A stretch of DNA of 64,000 nucleotides, from positions 64,001-128,000 of the forward strand of contig JAHLWR010000010.1 of NCBI GenBank assembly GCA_019057815.1, given 5' to 3'. Shown in pieces: positions 47,352 through 53,463 of the stretch. Under the pieces are notes generated by a model. That model was given only the letters and a program-made list of their open reading frames with translations, was not told where the DNA came from and made no database searches. A program made the position numbers and the translations under genes. This stretch comes from Candidatus Heimdallarchaeota archaeon (GTDB taxonomy: Archaea; Asgardarchaeota; Heimdallarchaeia; Heimdallarchaeales; Heimdallarchaeaceae). How positions within the stretch are numbered: position 1 is the first letter of the stretch; every line of letters begins with the position of its first letter.

Positions 47352-48801
47352 GTGGCAACTGTTCACTCAAATATAGACAACCCTAGACAAAACTAGACGA
47401 GGACAACAGGATGGAGGGGGTAATACGCCGGTTTTTATAGAGAAAACGAGGGTGTACGGGTAAGAGTATGGGGAGTATACTTCCATATGCGCACACGAGC
47501 ATTCAAATACGAGTTGCGGTTGAACAATGCCCAACGGACGAGTGTAGAGAAACACGCAGGAGCAGCTCGATTTGCATGGAATTGGGGATTAGCGGAGAGG
47601 AAACAGCGGTACAAAGAACGAGAAAGAAAGGACAGATATACTTCTGCGATGCAACAGCATAGGGAACTCAACAATCTGAAGAAAACAGACTTTCCCTGGA
47701 TGTATGAGGTGTCCAAGTGTGCACCGCAAGAAGCATTACGGGATTTAGAACAAGCATACAAGAACTTCCTGACAGGAGTAAAAGCTGGACGGAAGGTAGG
47801 CTTCCCCAAATTTAAGAAAAAGGGGAAGTGTCAGGACAGTTTTAGACTCACGGGAACGATTAAGGTCTTTCCTGACAGTCGGCAGGTTCAACTCCCCCGA
47901 TTAGGGAAATTGAAATTAAAAGAGCGACCACGACTACCTACAAACACACACATTCTCTCTGTGACAGTCAAGCGGGAGGTTGCTGACCGCTGGTTCGTCA
48001 GTTTGACCGTCAAGGTTCCGACAACTCCTCCCCCCACAAATCATCATCGTAAACCAACTGTCGGGGTCGACCTTGGACTGAACCAGTTTGCCGTCCTCTC
48101 AGATGGGAGGACCTTCCACCACTCCAAACCACTCTCGACGTTGTTACGGAAGTATCAACGGTTGTCGAAAGCACTCTCACGGAAGAAACGTGGGTCAGCG
48201 AATTGGCATAAAGCGAAAACCAAGCTAGCCACGCTCCACTATCGAATCAGGTGCAGTCGACTCGACCAGTTACATAAAATAACAACGACCTTAGCACGTG
48301 AGTATGGCCAGGTCACCATCGAAGATTTGTATGTCAAAGGGATGATCCGTAATAAACGATTAGCTCGGACATTGTCAGATGTCAGTTTTGGGACGTTTCA
48401 GCGGTTGTTAAAGTATAAATGTCAGTGGTCAGGGACAATGGTTATACCCGCTGACCGCTGGTTTCCCTCCTCTAAACGGTGTTCGAGCTGTGGGTCTATT
48501 CATCAAGAGCTACAATTGAGTGACCGACAGTTCCTTTGCCCTTCCTGTGGTTTACTCCTTGACCGCGACCTGAACGCCTCCTACAATTTGCTCGATTATC
48601 TGTGGATTACTGTCACTGTCGCCGAGAGTTCCTCGGAGACGTTAAACGCTTGTGGAGCTGCGGTAAGACCGTTTGAGTCCCCACCCTCCCCTCTGGATGG
48701 TCGGGAGACGATGATTGCGGCACGTCCTATGAAGCAGGAACTGAGCACAAACTAGATACATCTTACTATTTGTCTAGATTTGGATAAGTCTTAGAGAACG
48801 G
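47352..48801 (+). mobile_element. Non-autonomous IS607-like element carrying tnpB only
   Basis: GG at both junctions; repeated tagac(aa) motifs at both ends; imperfect inverted match (23/33) between 47359-47391 and 48769-48801; GC-richer than flanks; removal restores an in-frame gene end. Confidence 0.75.
47487..48755 (+). CDS. tnpB: TnpB RNA-guided nuclease (IS607-type)
   Basis: GAARFAWNWGL, GFPKFKKK, VGVDLG, IEDL, PSSKRCSSCG...CPSCG, DRDLNAS. Confidence 0.95.
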   Translation: MRTRAFKYELRLNNAQRTSVEKHAGAARFAWNWGLAERKQRYKERERKDRYTSAMQQHRELNNLKKTDFPWMYEVSKCAPQEALRDLEQAYKNFLTGVKAGRKVGFPKFKKKGKCQDSFRLTGTIKVFPDSRQVQLPRLGKLKLKERPRLPTNTHILSVTVKREVADRWFVSLTVKVPTTPPPTNHHRKPTVGVDLGLNQFAVLSDGRTFHHSKPLSTLLRKYQRLSKALSRKKRGSANWHKAKTKLATLHYRIRCSRLDQLHKITTTLAREYGQVTIEDLYVKGMIRNKRLARTLSDVSFGTFQRLLKYKCQWSGTMVIPADRWFPSSKRCSSCGSIHQELQLSDRQFLCPSCGLLLDRDLNASYNLLDYLWITVTVAESSSETLNACGAAVRPFESPPSPLDGRETMIAARPMKQELSTN

Positions 48802-49428
48802 TATTCCCAAACCTGTTAAAACAAAACCTTCAGATATTAATCCCATTTTTGCTAGTTCCTCGATAACAAATGGAATCACTAGTATCGCTAACTCTTCATG
48901 ACCCACTTTCTGTATTTCTTCAATTGTATATTGTGAAACTGTCTCCCTCAAAATTCCCCTAAGAATATCATTGATTTTCTTTTTAACTTCTATACTTTTT
49001 ACAATGGCTGTTTCTTTGACTATATTTAAACTAAATACTTCTGGGGCGGAAATCGATAAAGAAAGTGCTCCTGACGCACCTACTTTGACGTTATCTAAAG
49101 TTAAGACTCCTTGTTGTTGAGGTATCCCCCATTTGATATCAAAATCTTGCTTTGTTAGATAAACAATTTTGAGATTCTCAGCTCCACCTTTCTTATCTAA
49201 ATTGTATACACCGTTAGTTAATGTTCTAACTATCTGTTCATTTTCGTAAACTACAGCTTGTTCTGTACTTTTTACTGATATTTGATTGAATTTTCTTAGT
49301 TCTACTCTCTTCTCTCCTTTTTCAAGCGCATGGGGGAACACCCAAGCTACTTCTTCCCCTTGTTTTTCGCTTTTTATCGCTATTTTTTCTTTGTATTCTT
49401 CATTTTGAATTTTTTTAATGTAAGCCAT
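48766..49428 (-). CDS. SPFH/Band-7 domain protein (YdjI-like); last ~10 codons IS-derived
   Basis: AWVFP...VKSTEQAVVY...GVYNL...IVYL....DIKWG..P...VGASG.L.L.I..P..F pattern. Confidence 0.75.
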   Translation of the reverse strand: MAYIKKIQNEEYKEKIAIKSEKQGEEVAWVFPHALEKGEKRVELRKFNQISVKSTEQAVVYENEQIVRTLTNGVYNLDKKGGAENLKIVYLTKQDFDIKWGIPQQQGVLTLDNVKVGASGALSLSISAPEVFSLNIVKETAIVKSIEVKKKINDILRGILRETVSQYTIEEIQKVGHEELAILVIPFVIEELAKMGLISEGFVLTGLGIPFSKTYPNLDK

Positions 49429-49449
49429 TTAATCACCAAATTTCTAGAT

Positions 49450-51526: not shown

Positions 51527-51575
51527 TTTAATCCCTATCATAAAATCTTTTCAATTACCCAATATATCTTTTTCG

Positions 51576-52601
51576 CTATCCTTTCACATAAATATTCTTA
51601 ATGGTAAAATATTTCTCCTTTTCTTGTTCATATTTATGAATCAAAGTTTTCCTATCTCCTTCTTCGCTTAATGACATGTATCGCATTCTGAAGATTAGTT
51701 TCTCGAAGAGTTTCTGCATCTTTTCTCTTTGATCTTCTTGAACATAAAATTTCCATAAGACAGTATCTAATAAGATTTCAATTTTCTTTGGAAAAACTAG
51801 TTTATCGTCTTTCACTTCAGTGTTTTTTAGTTGGTAGTACATATCATCAGTAAAAGCACGCTTGAGTTTTCCTTTGATTTCTGAAATTTTAGTACCTTTT
51901 TGTGAGAGAATATTTGCATCAAGAAGTATTTTTGAAGATAATTTTGACCCAAATTCTCTTTTTTCTGATTCTTGGTGTTCTAGCAACACTTGACATATCT
52001 CTTTTCTAATAGAGAATAGATCTGTTTTATCGTCTAACTCTTTAAAATCGCAAGAGATTTTTGCTATTTGAGAGTTTTCCAACTTTTCTCTTAGCTCTGT
52101 TGAAACGTATGTTAGAATACGCTCTCCTTTTTTTTCTACATCAAAAGCTACACTTGTTTCAAAATTTGAGAGAACTAAATCTTCTTTTTTGATTTTCCCC
52201 ACATTTATTTCGTTCACACTATTCTCTTTGAACTGATAGTATTTTGTTTCACTTACATTTGTCACAATTGACAAGAAATAGGGGTAGATAGTAGCAAATT
52301 GCTCAATAGTTTGATCATCTGTTTTACTATGGAAAACCTTACCTGTATGAGAATGATATATCCCTACAACTCCTATCCCTTTTGGAATCGCTTTTGTTAT
52401 TTCCATTACTTCTTCATGAGAAGGTTCTGCACTTATCTGACTCTGCATTCTGTAATAGTAACAAGGAATGCTACAGATAACGAATAGCTTATCATAGAAA
52501 TCATAACCTAATAACCAGCCATAAATTTCTTGCTCCTTAAAAGCATCTGCGTGGTTCTCAATAGCTTCTAGAACATGTTCAAAGATATACACATCACTCA
52601 T
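51576..52601 (-). CDS. JAMM/MPN+ metalloprotease with long C-terminal extension
   Basis: EIYGWLLG ... VVGIYHSH-x5-HSKTD: the full E, HxH, S, D set. Confidence 0.88.
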   Translation of the reverse strand: MSDVYIFEHVLEAIENHADAFKEQEIYGWLLGYDFYDKLFVICSIPCYYYRMQSQISAEPSHEEVMEITKAIPKGIGVVGIYHSHTGKVFHSKTDDQTIEQFATIYPYFLSIVTNVSETKYYQFKENSVNEINVGKIKKEDLVLSNFETSVAFDVEKKGERILTYVSTELREKLENSQIAKISCDFKELDDKTDLFSIRKEICQVLLEHQESEKREFGSKLSSKILLDANILSQKGTKISEIKGKLKRAFTDDMYYQLKNTEVKDDKLVFPKKIEILLDTVLWKFYVQEDQREKMQKLFEKLIFRMRYMSLSEEGDRKTLIHKYEQEKEKYFTIKNIYVKG

Positions 52602-53463
52602 CTTCTATCCTCCTCTTTTCTTCTCCTAACTCTTCTATTAGTTCATCAACACTTTTACCTTCAGTAATAGATTGTATTTGCTTTAAAGAACTTTCCTTTT
52701 CAGTTTTTGAGTACCTTTTGTCTCCACAAACATAACAATTAGGATCTCTAGGCGTTTTTTGGTGAATATAAACATCATCTAGAGCATTAAAACCTATATA
52801 ATCAGGTATTTTCCCAAACTCTAGTAAATGTTTTAAGCTGATTTCTGTTGCTATTGAAGCTATTATTGCTATGGTAGATGGTAATGAAGCTGTACATGAT
52901 TCTCCTTTCTCTTTACTCCCTAAATCAAGTGAGCCTGTGCAAGAATAACAAGCATTTTTCCTTGGTAAGACTAGATGAATATATCCCCCTAATCCTGATC
53001 TTGTCGCTCCAGTATCGACATAAGCTTTATCCAGCGCTACACATTTCTGATTTATGTATAATCTTGCTGGTAAATTGTCAAGGCAAGAAAAAGTTAGATT
53101 GCACTGTTTTATGAGTTCATCTAGTTTGCCCTCAAACTCATTAGAACAGACATCTGTCATAAAAGAATTAATATTAACACCTGGATTAACTGTTGATAAT
53201 ATCTTTTTAACCACTTCAACTTTAGGTTCTCCTATCTGCTCTTTTAGATAGAAAAGACGATTGAGATTCACTTCCTCTACGATGTCAAGATCAATGATAT
53301 TAAGTTCCCCTATTCCACATCTTGCTAACATTTCAGCAACGATGCTTCCAACACCACCAACACCGATGATTAAAACCTTTTTCTCACTTAATTTTTCCCA
53401 ATTTATGTCATATCCAAAATCGCTCAAAGATTTCAAACGAGTATATCTGTTAGTGGAATCCAT
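52594..53463 (-). CDS. uba5: UBA5-like E1 activating enzyme
   Basis: YTRL..L...G; GVGGVGS..AEML.RCGIG; NLNRLF; SCLDN..AR; CYSC; catalytic CTASLPST (UBA5 CAASLPTT); LK.LL.FG...Y.G.NA..D; DPNC..C. Confidence 0.9.
   Translation of the reverse strand: MDSTNRYTRLKSLSDFGYDINWEKLSEKKVLIIGVGGVGSIVAEMLARCGIGELNIIDLDIVEEVNLNRLFYLKEQIGEPKVEVVKKILSTVNPGVNINSFMTDVCSNEFEGKLDELIKQCNLTFSCLDNLPARLYINQKCVALDKAYVDTGATRSGLGGYIHLVLPRKNACYSCTGSLDLGSKEKGESCTASLPSTIAIIASIATEISLKHLLEFGKIPDYIGFNALDDVYIHQKTPRDPNCYVCGDKRYSKTEKESSLKQIQSITEGKSVDELIEELGEEKRRIEDE

Follow-up and report, generated by a model that had tools for sequence, protein, structure and literature searches.

A probable UFM1-type conjugation cassette within a conserved seven-gene module of a Heimdallarchaeaceae genome

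We begin by considering a cluster of six genes in the genome of Candidatus Heimdallarchaeota archaeon (assembly GCA_019057815.1, contig JAHLWR010000010.1), at 48766-53463 of the 64,000-nucleotide stretch analysed here (contig positions 64,001-128,000). This whole stretch is called the window, and window coordinates are used throughout. The host genome is 3.7 Mb in size and 95% complete. The six open reading frames (ORFs) are co-oriented on the minus strand with spacings of -8, 34, 65, 125 and 21 bp, and their G+C content (32-39%) is like that of the remainder of the window. They encode a UBA5-type activating enzyme (E1), a JAMM metalloprotease, a small UFM1-like modifier (hereafter the tag), a UFC1-like conjugating enzyme (E2), a Vps22/EAP30-like protein and an SPFH protein, as listed in Table 1. 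Conjugation of UFM1 (UFMylation) is a eukaryotic pathway that animals cannot do without, and it has a link to ribosome quality control at the endoplasmic reticulum. We put the probability at about 0.7 that the cluster holds an intact UFM1-type conjugation cassette, embedded in a conserved seven-gene module. A preliminary description, made from the letters of the sequence, had proposed six tightly spaced genes of probably Asgard origin. All the ORFs and spacings are found as it gave them, and the named homologues belong to metagenome-assembled genomes of Candidatus Heimdallarchaeaceae or Heimdallarchaeota. Its six-gene span is real, but a seventh conserved gene, for a zinc-ribbon protein, lies outside it. 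Pfam searches support the ThiF, Prok-JAB, UFC1, EAP30 and Band_7 assignments.

Table 1. Genes of the module and neighbouring features in the window (aa, amino acids)
Feature	Position	Strand	Basis or remark
UBA5-type E1, 289 aa	52594-53463	-	Pfam ThiF 3e-49
JAMM/MPN+ metalloprotease, 341 aa	51576-52601	-	Pfam Prok-JAB 9e-9, JAB 5e-6
UFM1-like tag (modifier), 87 aa	51263-51526	-	predicted beta-grasp, C-terminus RGVVG-stop
UFC1-like E2, 195 aa, GTG start 51197	50610-51197	-	Pfam UFC1 27.3 bits
Vps22/EAP30-like protein, 344 aa	49450-50484	-	Pfam EAP30 2.8e-7, 30.9 bits
SPFH (Band_7 / Band_7_1) protein, 220 aa	48766-49428	-	Pfam Band_7 1.6e-7, Band_7_1 2.2e-6
Zinc-ribbon protein, ~360 aa, seventh module member	57140-58228	+	homology to Loki gene upstream of E1
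WD40 propeller protein, 716 aa, long C-terminal extension	53610-55760		divergent from E1
TnpB-only insertion element	47358-48802		422-aa OrfB_IS605/Cas12f-like ORF at 47487-48755
Second TnpB-type element, 406 aa	55768-56988	-	between WD40 and zinc-ribbon genes

By its sequence the E1 is clearly of the UBA5 type, a short single-domain enzyme whose match to ThiF covers residues 13-243. It carries a GxGxxG nucleotide loop (GVGGVGS), the motifs NLNRLF and CTASLPST, and two CxxC pairs (C172/C175 and C243/C246). The loop glycines G34, G36, G37 and G39, the four cysteines of the CxxC pairs and Cys190, which lies in CTASLPST, do not vary among 18 operon E1s. Cys190 is the candidate catalytic cysteine, presumably equivalent to Cys250 of human UBA5 in the motif CAASLPTT. 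When the E1 is compared with all PDB sequences, the top five matches are human UBA5 (1.2e-47 to 4e-44), followed by MoeB (3e-23), ThiF (9e-20), Uba1 (1.5e-19) and Uba4 (2.4e-12); BubCD and Cap2 give 3.6e-9 and 3.7e-8. A search of 5.8 billion proteins returns Asgard homologues at 219 bits or more, a spider UBA5 at 172 bits and the next ThiF proteins at 88 bits at most, and several of the Asgard homologues are labelled "ubiquitin-like modifier-activating enzyme 5" by JGI. In a quick maximum-likelihood tree, 19 Asgard E1s and eukaryotic UBA5 form one clade outside the other ThiF proteins (Shimodaira-Hasegawa-like approximate likelihood ratio support 96). The tree holds one named eukaryotic sequence, so the direction of descent cannot be read from it. 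In the region where UBA5 has its UFM1-interacting and UFC1-binding sequences, the E1 has an acidic C-terminal tail of 45 residues, but many operon E1s are 250-260 aa long and have no such tail. The UBA5-type signatures pointed out in the preliminary description are borne out both by the motifs and by the distance between the UBA5 and MoeB matches.

The predicted structure supports the tag as a UFM1-like beta-grasp modifier ending in a single glycine. The AlphaFold2 model, with a mean predicted local distance difference test score (pLDDT) of 89.4, is a confident beta-grasp fold in the order beta-beta-alpha-beta-alpha-beta. When this model is compared with the PDB using Foldseek, ranks 1-11 are all UFM1 (E 2e-6 to 2e-5, template modelling (TM) score 0.71-0.92, root-mean-square deviation (rmsd) 1.3-2.8 A). 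Ubiquitin and SUMO rank after UFM1 with lower TM-scores; the E-values at the boundary are 4.2e-5 for them and 1.8e-5 for UFM1, that is, the non-UFM1 matches are at least 2-fold weaker at the boundary and about 20-fold weaker than the best UFM1 match. The C-terminus follows the family pattern (I/L)(N/D)RG(V/I)VG, with 1-4 residues beyond it in some members; the single terminal glycine is preceded by valine, giving VG rather than GG. An upstream ATG at 51541 would lengthen the tag to 92 aa, and the homologues begin at the position of the 87-aa form.

In sequence the tag is 15-19% identical to UFM1. Family profiles built from 5, 10 and 38 sequences find UFM1 in the PDB with a best E of 0.013, which is not significant; at this E-value the 38-sequence profile aligns end to end on UFM1 and reaches the terminal glycine of the mature form. 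Because the sequence similarity is below significance, the homology of the tag to UFM1 rests on the predicted structure together with the gene partners. The earlier claim that the tag aligns to UFM1 and ends in VG can be kept for the VG end, but the alignment of the sequences is not significant. In many Loki genomes the tag is joined to the N-terminus of the E2 as one gene, and ten tag relatives checked by their records are Asgard wherever named. The tag family also occurs in other fusion proteins. In one (P0036) a TIR domain is followed by a tag-family domain. In another (P0050) a Hint/Vint autoprocessing domain comes directly after the tag, together with leucine-rich repeats, and the sequence ..VVG then Cys at the junction would permit self-cleavage at the glycine.

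For the E2, both sequence profiles and the predicted structure support a UFC1-type enzyme rather than a generic UBC. The match to Pfam UFC1 (PF08694) passes the cut-off of 25 bits by a narrow margin, with residues 4-160 aligned on profile positions 7-149 of 155, and a six-frame search of the genome with the same model gives 27.9 bits for the E2. A family profile of 19 sequences finds 26 UFC1 entries in the PDB, the best at 5.6e-7, and no other E2. The AlphaFold2 model (pLDDT 82.6) gives the same answer: when it is aligned with VIA-align, ranks 1-28 are all UFC1 with Z-scores of 11.4-13.7, and other E2s reach a Z of 9.4 at most. The superpositions on the 28 UFC1 entries have rmsd values of 2.7-4.3 A over 140-153 residues at 18-23% identity. 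Among the crystal entries the rmsd is about 2.7-3.5 A with 142-149 residues aligned, and the best match has a Z of 13.7 with 2.7 A over 143 residues. Foldseek gives TM-scores of 0.53-0.64 for UFC1 and 0.3-0.45 for others, with a less strict order in the E-values.

Within the E2, Cys123 in the motif MICHEHM is invariant (19 homologues) and lies in the model between a strand (118-121) and a helix (136-168). Ahead of it the enzyme reads GKIFLKN, which is neither TAK nor HPN, and in which G103, K104, K108 and N109 are invariant. It also has an acidic C-terminal tail. On good grounds Cys123 is the putative catalytic cysteine of the E2; because the region around the cysteine diverges, its equivalence to the catalytic cysteine of UFC1 (Cys116) is inferred and not read from aligned residues. 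What the preliminary description said of the E2, that it matches UFC1 and keeps the catalytic cysteine, therefore stands for the match and for the presence of MICHEHM, and in a weaker form for the equivalence. Two further occurrences of the family are recorded here: a fusion protein in which a SIR2-like domain and TPR repeats precede a UFC1-like E2 (L044:9692-12385, minus strand), and Asgard-type E2 fragments (L081, L084) on two JANBVM01 contigs of a metagenome-assembled genome labelled Patescibacteria group bacterium AMOR_Bin_1762, which are most likely mis-binned Asgard DNA.

The beginning of the E2 gene has a peculiarity of its own. The conserved N-terminal peptide (W..T..EK), which would correspond to the first helix of UFC1, is encoded beyond the GTG in the same frame as far as about 51236, and a genome-wide model match covers 50694-51236. 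The open frame upstream of the GTG (51198-51281) contains no ATG, GTG or TTG. In a second Heimdallarchaeaceae locus (L006:2816-2875) the peptide is likewise encoded upstream, with no ATG, GTG or TTG, and in both loci an in-frame ATT lies 7 codons before the conserved Trp. Residue 1 of the E2 model pairs with residue 12 of UFC1, consistent with an N-terminal peptide encoded upstream. These observations on the two sequences suggest either a non-canonical start codon or a shortened E2 in Heimdallarchaeaceae. A one-base frameshift need not be invoked, since the frame of the E2 already includes the conserved Trp.

The JAMM gene overlaps the E1 gene by 8 bp. In its N-terminal catalytic domain the protein has E25, H83, H85, S92 and D95; H83, H85, S92 and D95 are invariant in 18 homologues, and the E(I/V)YGW motif that holds E25 is kept in the 17 homologues covering it (the ORF of the 18th begins downstream). 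The spacing from the second histidine to the serine is 6 residues, where 7 is usual, and the C-terminal part (about 210 aa) matches no recognised family. The protease named in the preliminary description is therefore present with all its catalytic residues conserved. A ThiF-superfamily E1 beside a JAMM protein may also recall a sulfur-carrier pathway (MoeB/ThiF with MoaD/ThiS, or SAMP/Urm1), in which the tag would be thiocarboxylated for cofactor synthesis or tRNA thiolation. The public records of the E1 do read HesA/MoeB/ThiF, and some bacteria have Prok-JAB proteins alongside sulfur carriers of the CysO type. Yet UBA5 is a far closer relative of the E1 than MoeB or ThiF, the VG-ending tag has UFM1 as its best match, a dedicated E2 with an invariant cysteine is always present and often fused to the tag, and the module contains no rhodanese, MoaE, ThiG or Ncs6-type partner. 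We consider a sulfur-carrier role highly improbable.

The next question is whether the genes that follow the E2 belong with the conjugation enzymes. To answer it, 23 loci from Heimdall, Loki/Promethearchaeota, Odin, Sigyn and other Asgard lineages are compared. E1, JAMM, tag and E2 occur together in all 23 loci, accompanied in variable order by a Band_7_1-type SPFH gene and a gene for tandem winged helices. A homologue of the zinc-ribbon gene is present in 18 of the 23, usually directly upstream of the E1. The seven genes recur in Heimdall, Loki, Odin, Sigyn and Hermod loci, with changes of order and with unrelated housekeeping genes around them, and synteny across Asgard genomes extends the proposed operon to a seven-gene module. 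Within it the genes for the Vps22-like and SPFH proteins are partners that the cassette keeps across lineages, and not chance neighbours.

In the Vps22-like protein the N-terminal half is helical and tandem winged helices come after it; the EAP30 score of the protein exceeds the Pfam cut-off of 26.8 bits. In the PDB the profile of the winged-helix family finds human SNF8/EAP30 (4.8e-9) and yeast Vps22 (2e-5), with no match to UFL1 or DDRGK1. Since the profile matches EAP30/Vps22 and neither of those two, the label ESCRT-II-like (ESCRT, endosomal sorting complex required for transport) is justified for the fold. The gene is the weakest and a divergent third of three EAP30 genes in the genome (the others score 82 and 43 bits), and its place next to the E2 or SPFH gene is kept elsewhere in Asgard. 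Vps22 of ESCRT-II works with Vps25, Vps36 and ESCRT-III; no Vps25, ESCRT-III or Vps4 gene is found in the module at any of the 23 loci. Among Loki genes, a 350-aa gene in the same position matches the Vps22-like protein at 8e-6, and a 454-aa gene is, on weak evidence (E 0.024), likely its counterpart. A 360-aa Loki gene was also considered as a counterpart and rejected, BLASTP being empty; it corresponds to the zinc-ribbon gene instead.

The SPFH protein scores above the cut-offs of both Band_7 and Band_7_1, and Loki modules contain SPFH genes that it matches at 1e-19 and 2e-15. It has no N-terminal hydrophobic segment that could serve as a membrane anchor (the Kyte-Doolittle mean over 19 residues peaks at 1.95, and charged residues lie within that stretch), and transmembrane segments are absent from all the module proteins. 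In Loki loci the gene immediately upstream of the E1 encodes the counterpart of the zinc-ribbon protein, with 29% identity (E 2e-37). Pfam recognises only its C-terminal C4 zinc ribbon, with no family beyond the ribbon, and the protein has no match in the PDB. In the cultured Candidatus Lokiarchaeum ossiferum the family member (L040:5835-7229, G137) has an EAP30-like winged helix at the C-terminus in place of the ribbon, a combination that links the zinc-ribbon and Vps22-like partners. When both of these partners were modelled in one three-chain complex with the E2 as the scored chain, the score was 0.00, a value that speaks neither for nor against an E3-like binding role of either partner. 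The ESCRT-II-like and SPFH identities proposed in the preliminary description hold. Its membrane-remodelling partners hold as far as both proteins are conserved across Asgard, but remodelling itself is a conjecture, with no transmembrane segment and a divergent EAP30 paralogue to set against it.

A Vps22/EAP30-like gene together with a JAMM gene is also what the ubiquitin operons of Caldiarchaeum and Asgard archaea contain, and the cluster could on this account be a divergent copy of the already known Asgard ubiquitin-ESCRT cluster (ubiquitin, E1, E2, Rpn11-like DUB and ESCRT-II), of ubiquitin type and not of UFM1 type. Caldiarchaeum ubiquitin indeed stands at rank 13 of the structural matches of the tag, and the tag profile touches SUMO and a designed ubiquitin at E of about 0.01-0.03. 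Several results are at odds with this, however: the structural ranks ahead of those matches (1-11) belong to UFM1, the tag lacks the GG end, the E2 is about 4 Z units away from the ubiquitin, SUMO and NEDD8 E2s while its profile matches none of them, and the short single-domain E1 matches UBA1-type E1s only at about 1e-19. In addition, the two better EAP30 genes lie elsewhere in the genome. That the cluster is a ubiquitin-type system is accordingly quite improbable.

Around the cluster, the WD40 gene starts 146 bp from the E1 gene and is transcribed in the opposite direction. It was considered as a member of the module and rejected, being kept beside the module only within the same genus, and is probably a bystander. 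The E1 and zinc-ribbon genes are kept apart here by this lineage-specific WD40 gene and a TnpB element. At the other end, a TnpB element bounded by 34-nt imperfect inverted sequences (47358-47391 and 48769-48802) is inserted in the 3' end of the SPFH gene. Heimdall SPFH orthologues end in GLGIPPE(Y/F)R.., while in this protein the last ~5 residues are replaced and the sequence now ends GLGIPFSKTYPNLDK.

Several results weigh against a UFM1-type cassette. The tag scores 14.4 bits (E 0.037) against Pfam Ufm1 (PF03671), below the cut-off of 27; two of the 38 family members match this model at E <1, and none of the 54 relatives found with the tag profile among 1.84 billion representative proteins is called Ufm1 by Pfam. 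The E2 is without the TAK motif of UFC1 and has an insertion ahead of the cysteine, and its C-terminal half, which holds the cysteine, finds no UFC1 when searched alone against the PDB sequences. A UFSP-type protease is not found, nor is a UFL1/DDRGK1-type E3 in the cluster. Finally, of 400 Asgard genomes 36 have the E2 family; by genus the count is 20 of 85, and among high-quality genomes it is 9 of 90. Such patchy occurrence points to an accessory function, not a core one. As a separate observation, an unlinked 284-aa ORF elsewhere in the same genome (G000:C12:161923-162294, L008) matches E3_UFM1_ligase (UFL1) at 28.1 bits, with a cut-off of 23.2, and DDRGK weakly; by this match it is a possible UFL1/DDRGK1-like winged-helix protein.

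The same patchiness across genomes and genera also speaks for an antiviral or conflict system like Bil, Bub or the type II cyclic-oligonucleotide-based antiphage signalling system (CBASS), which are E1-E2-JAB-Ubl operons that attach tags to viral or host proteins upon infection. The chemistry would then be the same in a different role, and sensing or effector functions would fall to the SPFH, Vps22-like and zinc-ribbon proteins. One Loki locus adjoins genes for HEPN/nucleotidyltransferase, a helicase and BrxC/BrxD, insertion sequence elements lie on both sides of the cluster in the window, and the TIR-tag, tag-Hint/Vint and SIR2-TPR-E2 fusions hint at immune or conflict uses of the tag family. 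The E1 also matches the CBASS E1-E2 models of PADLOC at 3.6e-20. This match, however, concerns the generic ThiF domain only, at 70 bits as against 166 for UBA5. In the PADLOC release used, a 2023 version in which Bil and Bub models may be missing, the other seven proteins (six of the module and the WD40 protein) match no ubiquitin-like (Ubl) conjugation or CBASS model, apart from a marginal hit of the E2 (E 0.0087); the WD40 repeats match an unrelated repeat-domain model. Moreover, most neighbourhoods of the module are housekeeping in character (TFIIB, AFOR, RNase PH, AP endonuclease), and the phage and plasmid collections contain no relatives of the E2. An antiviral role for the module is unlikely, although less so than the ubiquitin-type and sulfur-carrier alternatives.

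Returning to the UFM1-type cassette, we infer the chemical steps, the direction of transfer, the roles of the partners and the biological purpose from what the comparison provides, namely the homology of the parts, the conservation of the catalytic residues, the gene order across Asgard and the functional linkage given by tag-E2 fusions in several Loki genomes. The E1 would bind ATP, adenylate Gly87 of the tag and take the tag as a thioester on Cys190, from which it would be handed to Cys123 of the E2. The E2, alone or with a conserved partner, would then attach the tag to lysines of its targets. The JAMM protease would expose the terminal glycine, a step needed in those relatives whose tag carries a short tail or is joined to the E2, and would probably also strip the tag from targets. 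The Vps22-like, SPFH and zinc-ribbon proteins would be obligate partners, most likely as adaptor, scaffold or target. For the SPFH protein the site of action may be a membrane.

A more far-reaching proposal concerns the origin of the eukaryotic pathway. Published analysis describes UFM1, UFC1, C53 and UFSP2 as exclusive to eukaryotes, places UBA5 in archaea and bacteria with a probably bacterial origin, and derives UFL1 and DDRGK1 from Asgard archaea (PMC10183829). A 2026 study reports that nine Asgard clades, alone among prokaryotes, have Ufm1 homologues (Ufm1-like folds), with no mention of E1, E2, synteny or operon (PMC12962969). A full-text search of the literature, incomplete in coverage and compatible with a prior description, found no report of a UFC1-like E2 or such an operon in archaea. 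What the present locus adds is the tag in one operon with a UBA5-type E1 and a UFC1-type E2, a tag-E2 fusion in some lineages, and three further proteins as a partner set. It is tempting, if doubtful, to see in the module the archaeal ancestor, or the closest surviving relative, of the eukaryotic UFM1 pathway. UFM1, UFC1 and UBA5 might then have arisen in Asgard archaea as one operon, which we offer as a tentative suggestion. That an ESCRT-II-like reader and a membrane scaffold of the SPFH kind served this operon is conceivable on similarly slender odds, and it is a speculative further step that eukaryotes later swapped the JAMM protease for UFSPs and recruited UFL1/DDRGK1 as E3. If true, the ancestry would overturn the published view of UFC1 as a eukaryotic invention and would connect membrane-associated quality control with the origin of UFMylation.

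Whatever its history, the module opens to tests in archaea a pathway for which the literature confines the carrier enzyme to eukaryotes. Four soluble proteins form a minimal system for rebuilding in vitro, and the partner proteins are candidate readers or targets. Candidatus Lokiarchaeum ossiferum carries E1, JAMM, tag, E2 and the zinc-ribbon-family protein (CP104013.1, near 1.04 Mb), with no separate Vps22-like or SPFH gene within 10 kb; this organism being in culture, the targets are open to proteomics.

To enable comparison, we set the module beside the known systems that it resembles in part. The pspA-ydjGHI envelope-stress operons of Bacillus subtilis encode the SPFH protein YdjI, the zinc-ribbon protein YdjG and the ESCRT-III relative PspA. 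The module has in common with them an anchorless Band_7_1-type SPFH protein encoded beside a zinc-ribbon protein, a likeness at the level of description; those operons are without conjugation enzymes, while the module has no PspA or ESCRT-III gene. With the bacterial Bil, Bub and type II CBASS (Cap2/Cap3) systems it shares the parts list, the operon logic, the patchy spread and some fusions to immune domains. Kinship in sequence to these systems is nevertheless limited to the generic ThiF domain, and they have none of the Vps22-like, SPFH and zinc-ribbon partners.

The archaeal ubiquitin operons (Ub-E1-E2-RING E3-Rpn11 of Caldiarchaeum subterraneum, and the Asgard ubiquitin-ESCRT clusters, PMC6043591 and PMC9192718) likewise encode a Ubl, E1, E2 and a JAMM/Rpn11-type protease together, with the protease expected to mature the tag and an ESCRT-II-type winged-helix protein nearby. 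They use GG tags, UBC-type E2s, E1s with a separate cysteine domain and RING E3s, whereas every core part of the present module is UFM1-type and no RING protein is present. With the eukaryotic UFM1 cascade the resemblance lies in the parts themselves: a short homodimer-type E1 with its cysteine within the adenylation domain and two CxxC zinc pairs, an E2 of UFC1 fold, a beta-grasp tag ending in Val-Gly and, as in pro-UFM1, a short removable tail on some tag relatives. The two differ in that the genes form one operon here, the protease is a JAMM enzyme and not a UFSP cysteine protease (UFSP1/2), the E2 has GKIFLKN for TAK and an insertion before the cysteine, and the tag is divergent and stays under the Pfam cut-off for Ufm1. 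UFL1, DDRGK1 and CDK5RAP3, the E3 of the eukaryotic cascade, are absent from the cluster, and the partners are the Vps22-like, SPFH and zinc-ribbon proteins. Taken together, these comparisons support a Ubl-E1-E2-JAMM operon that has UFM1-type core parts and a novel, conserved set of partners.

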